Part shown: piece after piece, positions 12,641-26,962 of the stretch
Position numbering within the stretch: the first letter of the stretch is position 1
Layout of the letters: every line of letters begins with the position of its first letter
Virus record (IMG/VR): IMGVR_UViG_3300006641_004726
Location: 1 to 53,015 of that record
Strand: one strand, 5' to 3'
DNA from: a virus
Taxonomy: Duplodnaviria; Caudoviricetes
Length of the DNA: 53,015 bases
Program-made: the position numbers and the translations under genes
Notes under the pieces: generated by a model
What the model saw: the letters and a program-made list of their open reading frames with translations, nothing else
Databases searched by the model: none
What the model was told of the DNA's origin: nothing

Positions 12641-13213
12641 CTACCCCGCTTTACGGGTCAACTCTGAAAAGGTTTTACCCTGTATGATGTGCTTGAGCAT
12701 GTTTTCTATGGTTCTGACCGGGACTCCAAACTCTTTTGCCAGCCTCCCCTTGCCCCAATGATAGGATGATCGAGACTCGTATCTCAATTTCACTTCATTG
12801 AAAAGTTCTTCTGACCAGTGTTTTCTTTTATGTGGATGCCCCGTAATAGCCGCAGCAGCCCGCCCGGGGGCGTTGTTTCGCTTATGGCCGCTCTTCCCCA
12901 ATGACTGGATTTGGGATTTGTCCCGAGTTTTCCAAAGCTCCACCATTCGCTCAGAGTTATTGTCTTTCCATTGCTGTGTATGCTGTTTTCCAGTAAATCG
13001 ACGTGCTCTACTAGATAGTTCAGCCCAAATCTCTTCCTTTCCTTTGATTCCTAACAGCCCTTGCGCGGCCAGTAAATCTCTCTGATCACCCTTTTCCAAG
13101 TATCGCAAATTGTGCAAAAACGCGTGCATAGCAACGTTCACACGCACACGGTTATTAGGGGAGTCATCTCCACCGTCGTACTTAGGGGTTAAGTGGTGAG
13201 TGTGAAAGATCAT
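12641..13213 (-). CDS. Free-standing HNH homing endonuclease
   Basis: HHLTPKYDGGDDSPNN...HAFLH motif, basic NUMOD-like linker and C-terminal HTH (LAKEFGVPVRTIENM). Visibly AT-richer than its flanks. Confidence 0.85.
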   Translation of the reverse strand: MIFHTHHLTPKYDGGDDSPNNRVRVNVAMHAFLHNLRYLEKGDQRDLLAAQGLLGIKGKEEIWAELSSRARRFTGKQHTQQWKDNNSERMVELWKTRDKSQIQSLGKSGHKRNNAPGRAAAAITGHPHKRKHWSEELFNEVKLRYESRSSYHWGKGRLAKEFGVPVRTIENMLKHIIQGKTFSELTRKAG

Positions 13214-16901: not shown

Positions 16902-19436
16902 TCAGCTGTACATTGCCTTCTTCAGGGCTTCCACGTAGTCCATCTCGCCACCAGACTTTTCGACCATGGCGAGAGCCCTTTGGTGAGGGTCCAGGTCGGC
17001 CTCATCCACGAACTTCATGGAACCACCAGCGTACTCGCTGAAGTCCACGAGGTTGGGCAGGCGATCGAGGATGCTGAAGAGCAGGCCAGTGGCGGTCTCA
17101 CCTTCGGAGAACTCCATGGTGCCAAACTCGAGACCCTCGGCGAACTCCATGAGTTTCCGCTCGGGGATGATGGAGTCGACCATCTTGCCGGACTCGTAGA
17201 GACCTTCCACGAAGCTGTGGATCTGCTCCTTGCGATGAGCGATCTGGGCTTCACGGTACTCGTGCTTGATGCGAGCGTTCTCGGCCTTCAGGGCTTCCAG
17301 CTCAGCACGGAACTCAGAGAACTCGTCGGCTTCCTTGTAGTTCCGGCCCATGGGCTTGTTCTTGCCCATGTCACAGAACTCCTCGTCCATCTCCTCGTCC
17401 TCACCCTCTTTGTAGGTGGAGCCGAAGCCGGTCTTGGAGTAGGGGTTCTGGTCCTTCTTGTGCTCGGCGTAGCCAGTGCTCACGCCGGAAGGCCCGGTCT
17501 CTTCAGCCACACCGCCGTCGTACTCACCGCTCAGCATGTCCTTCTTGGACTTCTGAACGCCAGCCTGAGCCTCGAGGCCCTCAGCGTGCTCGTCGGAGAG
17601 CATCTCGTCCTCTTCCTTACCGAAGCGCTTGGCCATTTCGGCTTCGCCCGGCTTGCCTTCCTTCTTGAGACGCTTGGCCTCGAAAGCGCGGTCGGCAGCA
17701 GCTTTGCGCTCAGCTTTGGGCTCAGCGTGGTCAGCGCCACCAGTCACACCGGAAGGACCTGTGCGCTCAGCGGGCTCGTCATCCTCATCGGAGTCGAATG
17801 CGCCAGGAGTCAGGGCTTTCTTGCTGGACTTGGGCTCACCACGGTAGGACTCAGCGTACACACCGCCAGTCTTCAGGGTCATCTCATCGGGACCACCCTC
17901 GAACTCACCGGAGAGCTGCTTCTTCTTGCCGCCCTCGGCGTACACGCCATCCTTACCTGTCACCTCAGCGGGCTCGGGCTCGGCGTAGTCAGCCATCACG
18001 GAACCAGGAATGCCACCACCATGGGAGTGAGGCATCTTCTGGCCGCTCTTGATCTGCATCACGCGGGCGTTCTTGGCGCGAGTGGAGTTCTCCACCTTGC
18101 TTGCGAACACCTCGTCGTCAGGCATCTCCTCGGTCTCGGTGGGCATCTTGGTCTCAGAGTCCACACGACCGGCAGGGTTGGTGCCAGAAGCGGTCTCGGC
18201 GTCGTTCACGCCGTAGTCAACGTCATCATCGTAGACGTCGTTGTTGTACATCTGTTCACGACTCATTTCGTCGTACCGTCCTTCATCGTCAGGGTCTACG
18301 AAACGACCGGTCTTGCGACGGTCCTCTTCGATGTCATTGTTTTTGGCTGCGGGACGACCTGCGTCGTGCTGCTCCTTGCCTGTGGAGATCTTGTCGCGAC
18401 CGAAGGTCGCTTTCTCGGGAGTGGTCTTGCCGGTCTTGTAGCGATCGGCCTGCTGCTCGCCGCTCTTGGCGGTCTCGTAGCGATCTTCGCCGAGGTCATT
18501 CTTCGGACCGCCTTCTGCGAAGTTGGTCTTGCCGGGCTCCATGCGGGGGTTCCGCATCTTGGGGGCGTTGGCGCCCATGTCCTCCTCTTCGCCCTCCTCG
18601 TACACGTTCTCCACCACCTGGGAGACAGAACCATGCGGAGTGCTCTTCTTTTTGCGGCTGATGCCTGCTTTTTCCATGAAATCGTCCTGGGGGAACTGGT
18701 CTTCAAGATCTGCAACAGATCGGGCATTGTCCCCCTTGCGAGGACGCTCCGAAAAGTTGGAGGGGTTGCTCGGATTCTCCACCTCTGACGCCTGATCCTC
18801 AGCTTCCGCCACATCAGCGGAAGTGTCCTCCTCCTCCTGTTCCTCGGGCGTGCCCACGGCTTCGGCCACGGCAGCCTGCATCTCGCTTCGAGCCAGGTCG
18901 AGCTTCTCCTTGAGCATCTCCAGCGGAGACTGGTCACGGATCAGTGTCGGGCCGAGGTCCTCATCGAAGACGTCGGCTGGGTTCAGCTTCACGGCGAAGT
19001 CGTAGACTCCGACGCGAGTGTCCCACTCAGCGAAGTTGAAGGGCTCCAGACCTTTCACAGCCGGAGGAGCGGCACCGAGCAGCGCCAGATGGCGTGCGGT
19101 CCACTTTCCGGGGTGGGGATTGATCTGGGAGTCAGGTGAGTAGAAAGAGATCGACACCTTGCGGTAGTGACCGTCTTTCACGAGGTCTTTGGCTACATCC
19201 GTGAATGCGACGTCTGCGTAGAGGTTGTCGCCCTGACGGGTGAAACCCTTGATCCATCCGTAGGATGGCAGACTGTCCGAGTCGCCCTGGTGACCAAGCA
19301 CCAGCGGAGCCTCGTGGATCGACGGATTGTAAGAGTCGACCACCTGTTGGAGGTCTTTCTCGGAGAAGGTTCGAGCCACGCCCTGGGCTGACGTTTGATC
19401 GCCAGCTTTGAACACGTGGATGCGCTTTTGAAACAT
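16902..19436 (-). CDS. Prohead protease-scaffold fusion (Mu gpI-like), 844 aa
   Basis: APLVLGH...YGWI...YRKVSISFY...RHLALLGAAPPAVKGL protease motifs, a long acidic linker and a C-terminal coiled coil ending MDYVEALKK. Confidence 0.85.
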   Translation of the reverse strand: MFQKRIHVFKAGDQTSAQGVARTFSEKDLQQVVDSYNPSIHEAPLVLGHQGDSDSLPSYGWIKGFTRQGDNLYADVAFTDVAKDLVKDGHYRKVSISFYSPDSQINPHPGKWTARHLALLGAAPPAVKGLEPFNFAEWDTRVGVYDFAVKLNPADVFDEDLGPTLIRDQSPLEMLKEKLDLARSEMQAAVAEAVGTPEEQEEEDTSADVAEAEDQASEVENPSNPSNFSERPRKGDNARSVADLEDQFPQDDFMEKAGISRKKKSTPHGSVSQVVENVYEEGEEEDMGANAPKMRNPRMEPGKTNFAEGGPKNDLGEDRYETAKSGEQQADRYKTGKTTPEKATFGRDKISTGKEQHDAGRPAAKNNDIEEDRRKTGRFVDPDDEGRYDEMSREQMYNNDVYDDDVDYGVNDAETASGTNPAGRVDSETKMPTETEEMPDDEVFASKVENSTRAKNARVMQIKSGQKMPHSHGGGIPGSVMADYAEPEPAEVTGKDGVYAEGGKKKQLSGEFEGGPDEMTLKTGGVYAESYRGEPKSSKKALTPGAFDSDEDDEPAERTGPSGVTGGADHAEPKAERKAAADRAFEAKRLKKEGKPGEAEMAKRFGKEEDEMLSDEHAEGLEAQAGVQKSKKDMLSGEYDGGVAEETGPSGVSTGYAEHKKDQNPYSKTGFGSTYKEGEDEEMDEEFCDMGKNKPMGRNYKEADEFSEFRAELEALKAENARIKHEYREAQIAHRKEQIHSFVEGLYESGKMVDSIIPERKLMEFAEGLEFGTMEFSEGETATGLLFSILDRLPNLVDFSEYAGGSMKFVDEADLDPHQRALAMVEKSGGEMDYVEALKKAMYS

Positions 19437-21341: not shown

Positions 21342-21661
21342 CTACGATACCTTTTGGCCATCTCGAAGTTGATCTTCAACAGACGGGAGCGCTTTTCCTG
21401 GCTCTCCATCTTCGTATTTGCCACTCTCTGCAGCTCCTCTCGGAGGAGATTCAGGGGGAGTGTAGCGTAAAGCATTGGTTCGAACAGCTCGTTGGCTGGT
21501 TCGATTTGAGTCGCAGGTTCCCTTTCTTCGGACTCTTCAAGGAGGCGAGCGCAGAGGGCGTTCATAGAAACACCCTCCAGCGCTGCCCGTTGTTTGAGTT
21601 TCGAATGGAGGGAATCCTCGACGTCGACCAGTAGGCGTTTCGTCATGGATTCCCGTCTCAT
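21338..21661 (-). CDS. Ribbon-helix-helix (Arc-like) DNA-binding protein
   Basis: KRLLVDVEDSLHSKLKQRAALEGVSMNALCARLL. Confidence 0.75.
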   Translation of the reverse strand: MRRESMTKRLLVDVEDSLHSKLKQRAALEGVSMNALCARLLEESEEREPATQIEPANELFEPMLYATLPLNLLREELQRVANTKMESQEKRSRLLKINFEMAKRYRR

Positions 21662-24600
21662 CAGATGGAGTTGTCTTGGCCCACGCCCAGTGCGTCGAGC
21701 TCGTTCTGCATGTTGCCGATGGCCACACGGATGAGGTCGACTTCGATGCGCTCCAGTGTTGGCACCGGAACCACGAACACCTTGGCGTGAACGATGCCAT
21801 TCTCCAGCGCTGCCGGAGTCTGGATGCGCTCGTCGCAGATCACCTGGAAGGCTTGACCCGGCTTAGCACCGAACAGCGCTCCGCGGACATACAGCTCGTT
21901 GAGGATGCTGTTGCCGATGGAGATGATCTTGTTGTAAACGAGGCCGAAACCGTCGATCACGTTGAAGATCTGGCTGTCGAAGGCGCGGCGGAGCGAACCG
22001 TACACCACGTTCATGATCACGCGAGTGTTCACGAACTGGAACAGGCGCTGCTCGGCGTCGTCCTGGTTGATGCGAGTACGACCACCCCAGATGAACACGG
22101 TAGCACCGTATCCAGGCAGTGTGCGGCAGACGTTGCAACCACGTGGGTTGAGAATGTCTTGCTGGGTGCTGTTGATCGGAATCTGAACAGCGGACACACC
22201 GTTGAGGGGGAACTTGACACCAGCAGGTGGATACTGGAAGCCCTCGCTGCGGTAGCGGCGGATGGCCACACCGGTGACGTAGGGGCTCGGAGGAATCCAA
22301 GCGCCGGAGGCGTTCTTGAGGTACGAACCGTAGTAGGCGATGAAGCCACGGGGGTTGTAGTACTGCTGGCTGTCCTCGAGCAGCTTCTGGGCATCGTCGA
22401 TGCCAGTCGCGAGCAGAACGGCAGCAGGCACGCCTTCGTTGAAGGTACCACGCAGAGCGTAGTCCACCAGCTCCTCGGAAGTAACTGCGTTGAAGCGCCA
22501 CAGGTTGGACGGAGCCTCCTTGTAGGCAGTGTAGCGCAGAGTCAGAGAAGCACCCCACAGCACGACCTTTGTGCCAGTGCCGTCTGTGTAGGTCGGGGTG
22601 ATGTAAGCCTCGGTAGCACGCTCCTGGGCGACCAGGGGCACGCAGAAGAAGCTCACAGTGTCCTGGGAAGCCAGGACGAGGTCTCCGAGGAATCCAGCGT
22701 TGTCCGGGTTCGGATAGCCAGCGTCGAACTCACCGTAGGCGGAGTAGTACTTCGCGTCGGGCTGGCTCTCCACACGGTAGAAACCGAGTGTGTGGGTGTC
22801 GCCTTGGCCGGCAGGACCGGACAGGGGATCCAGGTTCGCTGGATAGAAGGTCGGCATCACGTTGTACGTGTTGAAGCCGTACTTCCGACCGCGGATCAGG
22901 TTCACCAGACCCTCGTTGTTGTAGAGGCTGGTGTTCTCGGGAGCGATCAGCAGGGTGCTGTACGAGAGCGTGGTCTGACCAGCTGTGAGACCGCCATTCG
23001 GATAAGGAATGAAGATCCGGCTGTTGAGGTTGGTCAGTGTGGTCGCCAGCATGAACTGGTTACCGTTGATCACGTTCACGTAGTACTTCACAGAAGCCTG
23101 CGAAGTGGAGGCGTTCACCAGTGTGCCACCGCCGATCTTGGTCAGAGGGGCAGTGAAGTAGACGATGCCGCCGTTGTTCAGACCGTGATTGAGACAGTTG
23201 AACACAGCCGGGCTCGAAGACACGGAGGGATCGAGCTTGGTGATGTTTGTCTCGGCGAAGGTCCGAGTGAACTGTGCCAGCTGGAAGTTCTCTGTGCTGT
23301 CCTGGAGCGATCCGGGCAGGTGCAGAGTGTTCAGATCCAGCACTTGGTTGGTGCCGTTCAGGATAAGGTCAGAGGTCTGACCGTCGATCTCGACGTAAAT
23401 GTCCCAGGCGGGTGTCTCGTAGGACAGGATGCCGGTTCCCTTCGACTGCAGCGAGGCGTAGCCAGCAGCAGGAACGATGGGCGTACCACCGCTGAAGGTC
23501 AGGGTCAGAGGCATGTCAGCCGCCGAGTAGCCGGAACCAGCGTTGGTGATCTCCACATCCACCACACCGAAGCCGAGCTCAGCATGACCTGTAGCAGCGA
23601 CAATGGTGTTGCCCGAATCCAGAGGGGAGGGGACGAACTGCAGGAGAGGGGTGGCCAGATAGCCAGCACCACGATCCACGATGCTCACGCTCGACACAGG
23701 GAAGCCCTTGGTCGCGGTGGCAGCAGCAGCAACAGCGGGGTTGCCGTCGGAGAATGTGACGGTCACGGCATCGCTTGTAGCGTAGCCGGAGCCTTGTGTG
23801 GTCAGGGCCACGGAGGCCACAGCGCGACCGATCACGTAGGACAGGGCAGCGCCAGAACCGTAGGTGTCGCCAGGGGCGTTCACCAGGTTCACCAGGGTGG
23901 CTTCGTCGTAGCCAGTACCGCTGTTTGTCAGGTTGACAGAAGCGAGAGGGAAGCCGTAGAGCACGACGCCCGCAGCACCGTCACCAGTGGTGTCACCGGC
24001 AGCAGGTGTGATCTGCAGCACGTTGGCATCGCTGGAGGTGTAGCCAGAACCTGGAGTCACCACGTTGATGGCGGCCAGGGCACGACCCAGAACACCGGAA
24101 GCAGCAGCAGCGCCGCCAGTGCTGTCACCCACAGCGTTGGTGAAACCAATGCCGAAGGAAGTGTAGCCCGAACCGTTGGCAGTCACGCTGACCGAAGCCA
24201 CAGGGAAGCCCAGGGTGATGGTCAGGACCGGAGGTGTGAACCAAGTGCCAGGGGCCGAGTCGGTCACGGTTCCGTAGGAACCAGCCAGAGCGGCAGTCAG
24301 GTTGGCTTGAGTCCAACCAGAGCCGGCAGCACCGATGGAGAACCCAGCGGTAAAGTCCACTGCGGTCGAGTAGTCGATGACGATGTCGGTCTCAGAGCCA
24401 GCACCAGCGATGGTGATGGTTCCAACCAGACCAGGGCCAACAGCGACTTCGCCAGCGGCAGTCACGTTCACAGCCTTGCCTTCGGCGCCGAGAACGGCAG
24501 TCGCAGCAGCGAGGGTGCCGTCACCGCTCACATTCACGACAGGAGGCAGAGTGTAACCAGCGCCACCGTTGGTCACGTTCACAGCGGCCAGTCCGCCAGT

Positions 24601-26820
24601 CACTGCCAGAGTGGCAGAGAAGGTAGCGCCCACACCGGTTGTACCGGAGGGGAGGGCCACAGTCGGAACGGCCTGATAAAGGGACCCACCGCCGAAAGTG
24701 CCGATGCCCACAGCCGCACCACCAGTGGTGGCCAGAGTTGCGGTCGCACTTGCCAGAGTTCCGGAGCCAGAGAAGCTGACGGAAGGAGCGGCGATGTAGT
24801 TCTGACCAGGGTTGCCCAGGGTCAGGGTCTTGATGGTGCCAGCGGGAGCCAGAGTTGCGGTTGCAGTTGCAGCCACGCCACCAGCGCCGGCAGGAGCCGA
24901 GATGGCCACAGACGGAGCGCTCTCGTAGCCGGAACCGCCATCAGTCAGGGTCAGCTTGGCGATGTTGCCACCCACAGTTGCGAGGGAAGCTGTCACCACG
25001 CCGCCGGAACCGGGGTCGCCAGCGAGAGGCACCACGTTCACTGTCGGAACGTTGGTGTAGCCAGAACCGGCGGTGTCGACCACTGCTTCGTCGATGTTGC
25101 CGGTGTCACCCAAAATAGCGATACCGGTGGCTGTCACACCCCCTGCAGCAGCAGGAGCGGGGAAAGTCACGATCGGCTCGTCACCAGCGTTGTAGCCGGT
25201 ACCAGGGTTGGTGATCACCACGCCGGTCACAGCGTCGCCGATGTTGCCGTTGCCGCTGGAGGCATCCACGGGGATGCAGCCTGGGGGCAGGGTGTGAACA
25301 CCGGGGTACTCAGGAGTACCGTCGCCGTCCAGTCCACCTTGGCTGATGATCCAGTTGTAGGCGGTGATCGCCTGAGGATAGGTCTCAGCGAAGTAGATGT
25401 AGCCGGTGAAGGTCTTGTTCTCAGGTGTCAGGTAGGTGGGAACCACATACACTGTCAGGCCCTCGAACTCGGCCAGTGCGCCGCGGCAGTCACTCAGGGT
25501 CACGGGGGTGCCGGCTTCCTTGGTGGAAGGCCAGCTCTCACCCACCAGGTCCAGAAGACCGGGACGGTCGTAGGAAGGTGTGGTGCTTGTGGCGAAGGTG
25601 ATTTGGCCGTTGTCACGCAGGGACAGGAAACGGTCGAAAGGAACGTTCAGGTTCTGCGAGCCGTTGACGGCGTAGGAGGGGTCAGACTCAGAAGCGCTCA
25701 GCGGGGTGTAGCGCAGCTGCAGGTAGTCGGTGTCATCAGCCACCCACTCGTACACGCTGTTGCCAACCAGGAACTCCTGGCCATTCACCAGAGGAGCAGC
25801 AGCCTGATGCTGCAGGAAGTCCTCATACTCGAGGATGCTGGTCACCAGGTACGGACCTGCGTCAGCAATGGCCATCCACTTGTGGCTGTTGAGTTCGGCT
25901 TGGAAAGCCATCTCTTGGCCGATGAGGCGACGACCTTCGGGGCCGAACTTGGCGAAGGCGCAAGGAGCGGTCAGGTAACCCTGGGACTCCTCATCCACGA
26001 ATGCGGTGCGGAGGCACTGGATGTAGTCAGCAACCAGCTCGTTGGTGTTGGTGCTGTCAGGGATGACAGGGCCCACGGTGTAGGTGTTCAGAGTGAACAC
26101 GTAGTAAGCACCGTCGCTGGGAGGCTCGCTCTCAGGCACCACGCTCACAGGAGCGTTGAACTCACGACCGGCCAGGTACTCGAAAGCACACTCGCTGTTG
26201 GCAGTCTGACACACGCCGATGTCACGGACGATGGTGCCAGCCGACACGTTGGGGTCGGTGGTGATGGCGGCGGCAACAGCATCACGGATCGCGATGGCGA
26301 TCTTCTTGTTGTTGTCGTAGTTGCCCTCGACGTAGTCCACGGGAATCACCACGGGCACACCTTTCCAGGTGCCGCTGTTGGTGAAGGTGCCGAGACGGGC
26401 GCCGTTGATGAGCAGTTGGGCGTGAACAGTGTCACCAGCCTGCAGAGGGGTGGAGACACCCAGACCGTTGGTCTTGAAGCCGGAGGGGTTCAGCTGCACT
26501 TCCACCACGTTGGAGGGAGTGCCCACGCGGATCACGCGCAGGTCGCCCACGTAGCACTGAGCGAAGAATGCGTCCACACACTGGTAGGACAGCAGCTCGA
26601 TCTTGGTGGAGGGGATCACACCGCCGATCAGTCGCACATACTCGCGAGTATTGGTGACTTGGATGGGGGTGTTGAAGGGGAACAGTGTGGTGGGCACATC
26701 GGGCTCCACCTCAACCAGCATGTAGTTGGTCGAGAAGGGAGCAATAGCGGGGGTAGCCGACTGTCCGGCTACCTCGTTGATGTAGACGCCAGGAGCGCCT
26801 CCAAAGGAGATAGTTGCCAT
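21661..26820 (-). CDS. Giant contractile tail sheath protein with internal repeat insertion (1719 aa)
   Basis: APGVYINE N-terminus; C-terminal WIPPSPYVTG, PPAG, IWGGRT, FVNTRV and PVPTLERI sheath motifs. Confidence 0.92.
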   Translation of the reverse strand: MATISFGGAPGVYINEVAGQSATPAIAPFSTNYMLVEVEPDVPTTLFPFNTPIQVTNTREYVRLIGGVIPSTKIELLSYQCVDAFFAQCYVGDLRVIRVGTPSNVVEVQLNPSGFKTNGLGVSTPLQAGDTVHAQLLINGARLGTFTNSGTWKGVPVVIPVDYVEGNYDNNKKIAIAIRDAVAAAITTDPNVSAGTIVRDIGVCQTANSECAFEYLAGREFNAPVSVVPESEPPSDGAYYVFTLNTYTVGPVIPDSTNTNELVADYIQCLRTAFVDEESQGYLTAPCAFAKFGPEGRRLIGQEMAFQAELNSHKWMAIADAGPYLVTSILEYEDFLQHQAAAPLVNGQEFLVGNSVYEWVADDTDYLQLRYTPLSASESDPSYAVNGSQNLNVPFDRFLSLRDNGQITFATSTTPSYDRPGLLDLVGESWPSTKEAGTPVTLSDCRGALAEFEGLTVYVVPTYLTPENKTFTGYIYFAETYPQAITAYNWIISQGGLDGDGTPEYPGVHTLPPGCIPVDASSGNGNIGDAVTGVVITNPGTGYNAGDEPIVTFPAPAAAGGVTATGIAILGDTGNIDEAVVDTAGSGYTNVPTVNVVPLAGDPGSGGVVTASLATVGGNIAKLTLTDGGSGYESAPSVAISAPAGAGGVAATATATLAPAGTIKTLTLGNPGQNYIAAPSVSFSGSGTLASATATLATTGGAAVGIGTFGGGSLYQAVPTVALPSGTTGVGATFSATLAVTGGLAAVNVTNGGAGYTLPPVVNVSGDGTLAAATAVLGAEGKAVNVTAAGEVAVGPGLVGTITIAGAGSETDIVIDYSTAVDFTAGFSIGAAGSGWTQANLTAALAGSYGTVTDSAPGTWFTPPVLTITLGFPVASVSVTANGSGYTSFGIGFTNAVGDSTGGAAAASGVLGRALAAINVVTPGSGYTSSDANVLQITPAAGDTTGDGAAGVVLYGFPLASVNLTNSGTGYDEATLVNLVNAPGDTYGSGAALSYVIGRAVASVALTTQGSGYATSDAVTVTFSDGNPAVAAAATATKGFPVSSVSIVDRGAGYLATPLLQFVPSPLDSGNTIVAATGHAELGFGVVDVEITNAGSGYSAADMPLTLTFSGGTPIVPAAGYASLQSKGTGILSYETPAWDIYVEIDGQTSDLILNGTNQVLDLNTLHLPGSLQDSTENFQLAQFTRTFAETNITKLDPSVSSSPAVFNCLNHGLNNGGIVYFTAPLTKIGGGTLVNASTSQASVKYYVNVINGNQFMLATTLTNLNSRIFIPYPNGGLTAGQTTLSYSTLLIAPENTSLYNNEGLVNLIRGRKYGFNTYNVMPTFYPANLDPLSGPAGQGDTHTLGFYRVESQPDAKYYSAYGEFDAGYPNPDNAGFLGDLVLASQDTVSFFCVPLVAQERATEAYITPTYTDGTGTKVVLWGASLTLRYTAYKEAPSNLWRFNAVTSEELVDYALRGTFNEGVPAAVLLATGIDDAQKLLEDSQQYYNPRGFIAYYGSYLKNASGAWIPPSPYVTGVAIRRYRSEGFQYPPAGVKFPLNGVSAVQIPINSTQQDILNPRGCNVCRTLPGYGATVFIWGGRTRINQDDAEQRLFQFVNTRVIMNVVYGSLRRAFDSQIFNVIDGFGLVYNKIISIGNSILNELYVRGALFGAKPGQAFQVICDERIQTPAALENGIVHAKVFVVPVPTLERIEVDLIRVAIGNMQNELDALGVGQDNSI
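23446..25236 (-). repeat. Twelve ~40-45-aa beta repeats flanking a ~93-aa central unit, inside the sheath gene
   Basis: Consensus V-x-V-T-N-x-G-S-G-Y...V-x-F...G-x-x-A-x-A-x-x-x-L-G. Six copies precede and six follow 24208-24486. Confidence 0.85.
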
Positions 26821-26962
26821 TTCAATATGGTCAGAAGTCCCTTCTTTGCCTGGGCGGCGATGACGGCTTCGGGGAAGTTCCGCCTACGGTCTCCGCAGAG
26901 TCGCTGCCAGGGGTCTGTCTCTGAGTGACGGCCCGCTTTGTCCTCCGTTTCCGGCGCGGTCG

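Follow-up and report, generated by a model that had tools for sequence, protein, structure and literature searches.

The domains of gp18, the tail sheath protein of bacteriophage T4, are themselves nested. Of these, domain I lies farthest out on the T4 sheath (PMC8570332). A survey of multi-domain ('type 3') sheaths describes a conserved core of N- and C-terminal parts that carries extra domains directed outward, some of which are 'formed by two regions', one of them contributed by the returning chain; the top class of this survey comprises sheaths with five or more domains, mostly of immunoglobulin (Ig)-like folds, and the roles proposed there for the extra domains are adhesion, appendages, and stability (Evseev et al. 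2022, PMC9230969). A chain that folds back through a series of small domains is exemplified by Si3 of cyanobacterial RNA polymerase, a 150 Å insertion of eight small beta motifs (solved as 8emb), four of which draw elements from distant parts of the sequence (PMC10895346). Hair-like appendages along contractile tails were seen by electron microscopy in the phages vB_PcaM_CBB, whose hairs are 119 nm long and were not assigned to gene products, and Erwinia phage Y3 (PMC5259590, PMC13282480). The window considered here, that is, the whole 53,015-nucleotide stretch of viral DNA (Duplodnaviria; Caudoviricetes) that constitutes IMG/VR record IMGVR_UViG_3300006641_004726, encodes a tail sheath protein of 1719 amino acids (aa) interrupted by a 599-residue block of twelve GxGY repeat units placed symmetrically around a divergent centre. 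This block is probably an out-and-back stalk: a rod of nested split domains with a variable, presumably adhesive tip, carried on the sheath subunit.

The C-terminal part identifies the protein as a sheath. Residues 1485-1703 match the PHROG tail sheath families phrog_17610 (E-value, E, 1.6e-42) and phrog_23 (E 2.9e-22), and nine solved chains of sheaths or contractile injection systems match the same end of the protein, the best being 8kee_A (E 3.6e-41, residues 1474-1706), deposited as the sheath-tube of Anabaena phage A-1(L) (8KEE, PMC10966104). Pfam returned zero families at E <= 1 on the 1719-aa protein and NCBIfam returned none on the whole protein; the precomputed flag PF04984 is attached to 4 of the 120 listed homologues (P0012, P0041, P0055, P0097). 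Judged by the PHROG and PDB matches, the sheath core is present yet divergent despite the silence of Pfam. The closest named relative is the 1492-aa sheath of Synechococcus phage S-CBWM1 (genus Aokuangvirus; MG450654.1), to which identity is 37% (residues 5-522), 33% (1132-1340), and 48% (1396-1714), and with which the gene order sheath, small open reading frame (ORF), portal, protease is shared. In contrast to the window protein, it has zero GxGY units at the insertion site. The alignment stops at residue 522 and restarts at 1132, and since only about six residues intervene in S-CBWM1, the block is a clean insertion. A second site differs in the opposite sense, with ~360 extra residues in S-CBWM1 (residues 753-1172 of P0002, the sheath encoded at L001 5980-10455) as against ~55 residues in the window protein (1340-1396).

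The insertion comprises residues 527-1125 (window 23446-25242, minus strand) and consists of six units of ~42 aa, an 89-aa divergent centre (781-869), and six further units of another flavour. Motifs of the GxGY type lie at residues 540, 585, 629, 672, 712, and 753 in the first set and at 883, 924, 968, 1010, 1051, and 1095 in the second, with a GSGW motif at residue 833 between the two. When aligned, the 12 units share the succession strand, GxGY turn, short strand, glycine-rich loop, and alanine-rich strand, with pairwise identities of 12-51%; mean identity is 0.39 within the first set, 0.36 within the second, and 0.32 between them, and the units of the second set open with FP, RA, FP, RA, FP, and FG. 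A hidden Markov model (HMM) of the unit recovers six units at 527-778 and six at 870-1125 (per-unit E 6.6e-10 to 4.4e-17), a circular result in that the model was built from the very 12 units searched. PHROG families of unrelated cyanophage structural proteins, whose models are independent of this analysis, match the repeat region as well (E 1.7e-25 to 2.2e-8). On the 89-aa centre the unit HMM gave a single, non-significant match (score -1.2), and its iterated form weakly picked up the GSGW stretch (domain E 0.04), which may therefore be the remnant of a decayed unit. Tandem Repeats Finder detected no array at the DNA level, from which it follows that the repeats are old, and among window ORFs of 80 aa or more, the repeat is confined to the sheath gene (domain E <= 0.05). 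A preliminary description of this DNA had placed a ~600-aa insertion in mid-sheath at 23446-25236 (sheath residues 529-1125) and had divided it into six GxGY repeats, a divergent unit of ~93 aa, and six more repeats of a different style with the alternating starts just given; sequence comparison establishes the insertion, its site, and its repeats, and agrees with that description apart from the slightly shorter centre.

An AlphaFold2 model of residues 515-1140, obtained with a 19-row alignment that includes 18 homologues, is consistent with a chain that runs out and back. The model (predicted local distance difference test, pLDDT, 89.3; predicted template modelling score, pTM, 0.59) is all beta with the exception of one helix, and its flanks are disordered. 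A structural aligner was used to compare it with 48,161 PDB chains. Half of the best 50 matches listed are single domains of ~75 residues, of which 59-89 residues align while the first and last aligned positions span more than 330 model residues. These 25 matches run from unit i to unit 13-i (R1/R12, R2/R11, R3/R10, R4/R9), and their start and end positions add up to 627-644 in 24 cases and to 594 in one, a perfect mirror being expected at ~624. The other 25 fall within model residues 252-361 (265-357 for the tip domain) as a single contiguous domain. No R5/R8 or R6/R7 match occurs among the best 50 listed for this model. For a shorter construct of R6, tip, and R7 (residues 740-910; pLDDT 95.5, pTM 0.84), nine of the best 50 matches span R6 to R7 with at most 107 residues aligned, 37 lie inside the tip (model residues 40-132), and four extend from R6 into the tip. 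The two arms were also given to a complex predictor as separate chains, R1-R6 and R7-R12. The fold score was 0.69 in three of three runs and 0.00 in the best of three controls; this mark is attained by 58 of 80 solved complexes and by 2 of 110 mismatched pairs, a calibration that is rough here since an own alignment was used. Contact agreement in these runs was at least 95% and partner pLDDT at least 91, and the ~1,240 contacts run end to end on both arms. Twenty of the 25 least-error contacts listed lie strictly within partner units (R3-R10, R4-R9, R5-R8), the remaining five being at most two residues away from a partner-unit border. Template memory is an unlikely source of the two-chain fold because no like complex has been solved. 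Strands of the model cross unit borders on both arms, e.g., at model residues 51-69, 219-237, 392-408, and 563-579. As predictions, the pairing of unit i with unit 13-i, the compact domain at each level, and the domain folds are thereby supported. The preliminary description had reasoned that each outbound half-repeat pairs with an inbound one and that the centre is a domain of its own at the tip, and both models predict the same.

Evidence of a different kind comes from relatives of the protein. The best 120 of 323 homologues were listed (lengths 1017-1732 aa) and scored with the iterated unit HMM. Fifteen proteins (the window protein, P0003-P0015, and P0019) have the 6 + centre + 6 architecture, three (P0016-P0018) have 5 + centre + 5 with a centre of 93-98 aa, and one (P0020) has 1 + 1. 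Unequal arms were found in none of these 19 full-length proteins; P0019 scores 5+6 by HMM and was counted as 6+6 since the alignment shows a degenerate sixth outbound unit, and P0021 (1127 aa) and P0022 (1017 aa), each without one sheath end, were left out of the counts. On the alignments, these symmetric natural variants are as certain as the repeats themselves, and the number of repeats changes on both sides together, as had been anticipated; neither unequal counts in homologues nor sequential pairing of the repeats, the two outcomes named beforehand as contradicting an out-and-back chain, turned up. P0020 is a complete 1229-aa sheath whose best local BLASTP alignment, covering 43% of the query, shows 77% identity; two viral records and one metagenome contig carry it (L009, L010, L085). 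The first of its two units is orthologous to R1 (score 163; next best 76), and the second, joined directly to the first, is orthologous to R12 (score 144; next best 90). P0020 therefore fits a nested rather than a sequential design, with a basal domain formed by R1 and R12 and the rest of the insertion accommodated in the central loop of that domain. By these unit assignments, an outer pair that stays intact without the inner part occurs in nature. In P0016-P0018, the outbound units are clearly orthologous to R1-R5, and R10-R12 have their orthologues in the three final inbound units. A classifier of unit types, trained on 14 proteins (P0001 and P0003-P0015), assigns all units before the centre to type A and all units after it to type B in the held-out sheaths P0016-P0020. 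Scans of contigs added no new counts: 80 viral loci carry the repeat, six of them containing sheath-like ORFs, and among 79 metagenome loci one full sheath ORF was found, again of the 1+1 form, together with one further ORF that has a weak match to the sheath C-terminus only (E 6.4e-6).

Judged from the identity to the window protein across 13 close homologues (Table 1), conservation declines from base to tip in parallel on both arms, i.e., mirror-symmetrically. Residues 819-832 of the tip reach an entropy of 1.4-2.7 bits per column (window protein and 13 close homologues) and abut invariant GSGWTQ..N columns. In the R6-tip-R7 model, the tip weakly matches the tail fibre of phage 7-7-1 (Z 4.3), nodavirus P-domains (Z 3.3-3.4), CBM6 chains (Z 3.3), and the receptor-binding protein of TP901-1 (Z 2.8), all of these values lying within the range of common arrangements. 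The only Pfam and NCBIfam matches of the construct, DUF4236 (E 0.77) and PilX (E 2.8), miss the cut-off by a wide margin and are unrelated. A whole-library search with a 95-aa tip query returned one protein at E <= 0.001, the 3903-aa P0122 (31 stretches), which is a bacterial cadherin-like/RTX repeat protein. The match stems from tip residues ~844-865 (window 24205-24489, minus strand), where a 22-residue motif, YGT.TD...GTW...P, resembles the Cadherin_5 repeats of P0122 at 45-52% identity. The match was rejected as a sign of homology since the likeness is confined to this motif and its E-value is inflated by repetition; the whole tip does not match the Pfam Cadherin_5 model.

The gene encodes the sheath subunit of a large cyanophage-type myovirus. 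The contractile sheath is made by the conserved N- and C-terminal parts of this subunit, and the insertion sits in the outer, non-core part. From there, the chain would run outward through six half-units of ~42 residues and three strands each (R1-R6), form the contiguous tip of ~90 residues, and return through the half-units of the second flavour (R7-R12). Each outbound unit would pair with the inbound unit at the same level, from R1-R12 through R6-R7, and thus complete a small beta domain, so that the stalk would consist of six nested split domains and a tip, with both chain directions crossing each domain junction as near-continuous beta strands. Because strands cross unit borders on both arms, the rod would be stiff, at ~3 nm per level and ~20 nm in total, an estimate derived from strand lengths alone. 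Every sheath subunit would carry one such rod, so that the tail may be bristled, and the variable tip would most likely touch surfaces of the host or of particles through weak, multivalent contacts. Rigidity, length, radial projection, and an adhesive role are what the model would imply for the rod, and weak multivalent adhesion by the tip is the leading guess as to its function. It is favored because the rod ends in a separate, rapidly evolving domain that bears a hypervariable patch, and because the published sheath analysis proposes adhesion, appendages, or stabilization for extra domains (PMC9230969). Since close relatives exist without the rod (the 1+1 form P0020, and S-CBWM1 with no units), it would be an accessory that is not needed for assembly or contraction. 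A more far-reaching version is doubtful: the sheath protein itself would encode a 'bristled' tail, a small two-half beta domain having been inserted repeatedly into its own central loop to give a stiff rod of adjustable length, with the tip as the adhesin that makes first contact, present along the tail in hundreds of copies. With the tip included, natural rod lengths would then be one level, six levels (5+5), and seven levels (6+6), and type B would be a sheath-specific invention whose return-strand units made a monomeric hairpin rod out of a one-way fibre repeat.

It could be argued that folding joins each unit to the next one in sequence (R1+R2, R3+R4, and so on), like beads on a string, and that the array loops back loosely. 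The alternation of FP and RA in the second arm has a period of two units, as this arrangement would have it, and in other phage structural proteins the GxGY unit makes one-way tandem arrays, with 20 units in ORFs of ~1200 aa and up to 46 in a 3360-aa ORF, nearly all of type A; the existence of such arrays implies that the unit is not always in need of a return strand. However, both predictions pair i with 13-i over the full length, the natural 1+1 sheath has retained R1 and R12 rather than R1 and R2, the arms are equal in 19 of 19 full-length proteins, and the gradient of conservation is mirror-symmetric, which makes sequential folding highly improbable. Other explanations accept the nested rod and assign it a different task. 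It might lie along or around the sheath and bind neighbouring subunits as a brace that stabilizes the extended tail. Cementing is among the roles proposed for extra sheath domains (PMC9230969), an outer coil encircles the sheath of phage G (PMC8570332), and the basal units are the best conserved. A distal end that is the most variable part and has a hypervariable patch, however, is easier to reconcile with an exposed tip that faces a ligand than with a conserved joint between proteins, and close relatives such as P0020 and S-CBWM1 manage without the rod, which is thus not needed for sheath stability; a brace is therefore unlikely. Somewhat less likely still is a rod that projects and works physically, as a spacer against aggregation, as a means to add drag or control sinking, or as a shield for the sheath. 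Neither Pfam nor NCBIfam detects a binding-domain family in the tip, and drag had been proposed in the preliminary description along with adhesion, yet a purely physical role leaves the distinct fold of the tip and its invariant residues beside a hypervariable patch unexplained.

Several points weigh against the nested, adhesive stalk itself. The mirror pairing was read from first and last aligned residues and from the list of 25 contacts rather than from coordinates or error maps, and both predictors were fed one shallow alignment (19 rows, 41-75% identity), their learned knowledge not being independent. Structural matches of the predicted folds are weak, with a best Z of 6.1. A test of whether partner units share a duplication history fell short of significance (mirror r 0.30, rank 123 of 720 permutations). 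The 5+5 forms miss R6 in the outbound arm, and the missing inbound unit is ambiguous among R7-R9 (scores of 76 vs 74 and 105 vs 101); a single replacement of the central region would equally yield their symmetric loss. With respect to the tip, no Pfam or NCBIfam family is matched at E <= 10, and the whole-library search contained no convincing sequence relative from outside the clade.

How the predicted stalk relates to described systems can be seen from the top three matches of the split domain, which are the same in both structural searches: domain I of T4 gp18 (3fo8, 3foa) and the corresponding domain in the sheath of Klebsiella phage KP1 (9ev2). The insertion model matches 3fo8, 3foa, and 9ev2 with Z of 6.1, 5.7, and 5.2 (74-79 residues, root-mean-square deviation, rmsd, 3.0-3.2 Å), and the R6-tip-R7 model with Z of 5.6, 5.4, and 4.8 (71-74 residues, rmsd 2.8-2.9 Å), the next unrelated matches having Z of 4.1-4.3. 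Sequence identity to these sheaths is 8-19%. The likeness to domain I is suggestive only, since a Z under 8 may reflect a common arrangement. Whereas domain I of gp18 is a single domain made of one contiguous stretch (~98-188), the domain in the window protein is split in halves and, according to the model, nested six deep. Compared with the type 3 sheaths, the 1719-aa protein would have seven nested levels assembled from homologous half-units, and no Ig-like Pfam family was detected in it. The proposed stalk shares its working principle with Si3; Si3, however, is built from the SBHM motif, belongs to another protein, and has an irregular pattern, whereas the sheath stalk would be strictly mirror-nested, and a Foldseek comparison of the insertion model with 8emb_B was not significant (E 0.14, TM 0.06). 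CBB and Y3 are unrelated jumbo phages, and in contrast to the hairs on their tails, the appendage proposed here would be only ~20 nm long and part of the sheath protein itself. Foldseek found nothing in the PDB at E <= 0.001 for either the insertion or the R6-tip-R7 model; against viral predicted structures it gave 22 matches at this threshold, all of them repeat-bearing cyanophage structural proteins (best M4QDB5, 4.7e-9), and a protein atlas search of the insertion returned unnamed clusters only (score 0.92). No description of a sheath-borne stalk was found in the literature searched, though supplements outside its scope may hold sheath models. Extra sheath domains with a returning chain and nested insertions are already known; what differs here is the regular mirror nesting predicted for one repeat, with six levels and a tip, inside the sheath protein, a nesting backed by the natural 1+1, 5+5, and 6+6 forms.

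Extra sheath domains are known, but their roles are mostly guesses. Sheaths that are otherwise alike occur with no insertion, with one basal domain, and with a rod of six or seven levels (the tip on top of five or six split domains), and this ready comparison could reveal how the decoration of tails affects the adsorption, stability, or ecology of aquatic phages. The predicted architecture would also be a clean case of a large insertion that keeps its ends together by means of mirror-paired half-domains and whose length is set by the addition or removal of whole levels. If true, seven nested levels derived from a single repeat would rank with the deepest regular nestings of domains so far described.

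Table 1. Features of the tail sheath gene and its insertion in the window (identity: to the window protein across 13 close homologues)
Feature	Window position	Strand	Identity	Remarks
Tail sheath gene	21661-26820	minus		1719 aa; stop codon included; single ORF; PHROG tail sheath matches
N-terminal sheath part and outer region before insertion	25243-26820	minus		residues 1-526; S-CBWM1 alignment over 5-522
Outbound arm R1-R6	24481-25242	minus		residues 527-780; type A in held-out relatives
R1	25108-25242	minus	0.80	outbound arm; predicted partner R12
R2	24976-25107	minus	0.68	outbound arm; predicted partner R11
R3	24847-24975	minus	0.72	outbound arm; predicted partner R10
R4	24727-24846	minus	0.68	outbound arm; predicted partner R9
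R5	24604-24726	minus	0.65	outbound arm; predicted partner R8
R6	24481-24603	minus	0.61	outbound arm; predicted partner R7
Tip domain (predicted)	24214-24480	minus	0.52	residues 781-869; contiguous, mostly beta plus one helix; degenerate GSGW unit; least conserved segment
Most variable tip patch	24325-24366	minus		residues 819-832; by column entropy
Inbound arm R7-R12	23446-24213	minus		residues 870-1125; type B in held-out relatives
R7	24091-24213	minus	0.61	inbound arm
R8	23959-24090	minus	0.56	inbound arm
R9	23833-23958	minus	0.67	inbound arm
R10	23710-23832	minus	0.59	inbound arm
R11	23578-23709	minus	0.68	inbound arm
R12	23446-23577	minus	0.78	inbound arm
Outer sheath region after insertion	22402-23445	minus		residues 1126-1473; 1132-1340 align with S-CBWM1 sheath 533-753
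Conserved C-terminal sheath core	21664-22401	minus		residues 1474-1719; 8kee_A and PHROG matches

Beyond this site, the GxGY unit occurs widely among structural proteins of phages, with 261 viral and 132 metagenome stretches confirmed as relatives, and neither Pfam nor NCBIfam holds a model for it; a description of the unit would improve the annotation of such proteins. Loci with GxGY arrays include L007, L008, L105, L121, and L130. None of 20 picked non-sheath ORFs contains a run of type A units followed by an equal run of type B, most of their units being of type A, and since the mirror pattern is absent from all 20, the nested reading cannot be extended to them. Within the sheath family, many relatives also carry GxGY-like units at other sites downstream of a GQTSDL motif, in mixed patterns such as 2|2 (with a gap of ~240 aa), 4, 4|2, and 3. 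Relatives of 1300-1500 aa with further variable sites include P0052, P0071, and P0107.

The setting of the sheath gene is a tail, neck, and head structural module of a large myovirus. A neck1/tail-completion protein (phrog_26) is encoded on its 5′ side, with DNA polymerase and topoisomerase II further upstream, and a gp25-like baseplate wedge (phrog_43), portal, protease, major head protein, and gp6-like wedge follow on its 3′ side. The same sheath protein is present on five contigs. The 53-kb record has an estimated completeness of 25% and a G+C content of 54-63%. It is classed as a provirus, though its annotated genes (DNA polymerase, topoisomerase II, structural genes) are those of a large virulent-type myovirus; neither an integrase nor a host flank turned up among the annotated genes, no search having been aimed at either. 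The best of two match stretches in the head maturation protease ORF (16902-19436, minus strand; 844 aa) covers residues 3-283 only, which leaves ~560 residues without explanation. Antisense to the whole sheath gene runs a 1750-aa open frame (21676-26928, plus strand) with an apparently low-complexity translation, which is taken for a by-product of the G+C-rich coding strand and its glycine- and alanine-rich product. Finally, a 190-aa ORF within the structural module (12641-13213, minus strand) has a weak match to a homing endonuclease (phrog_655, E 5.4e-4).

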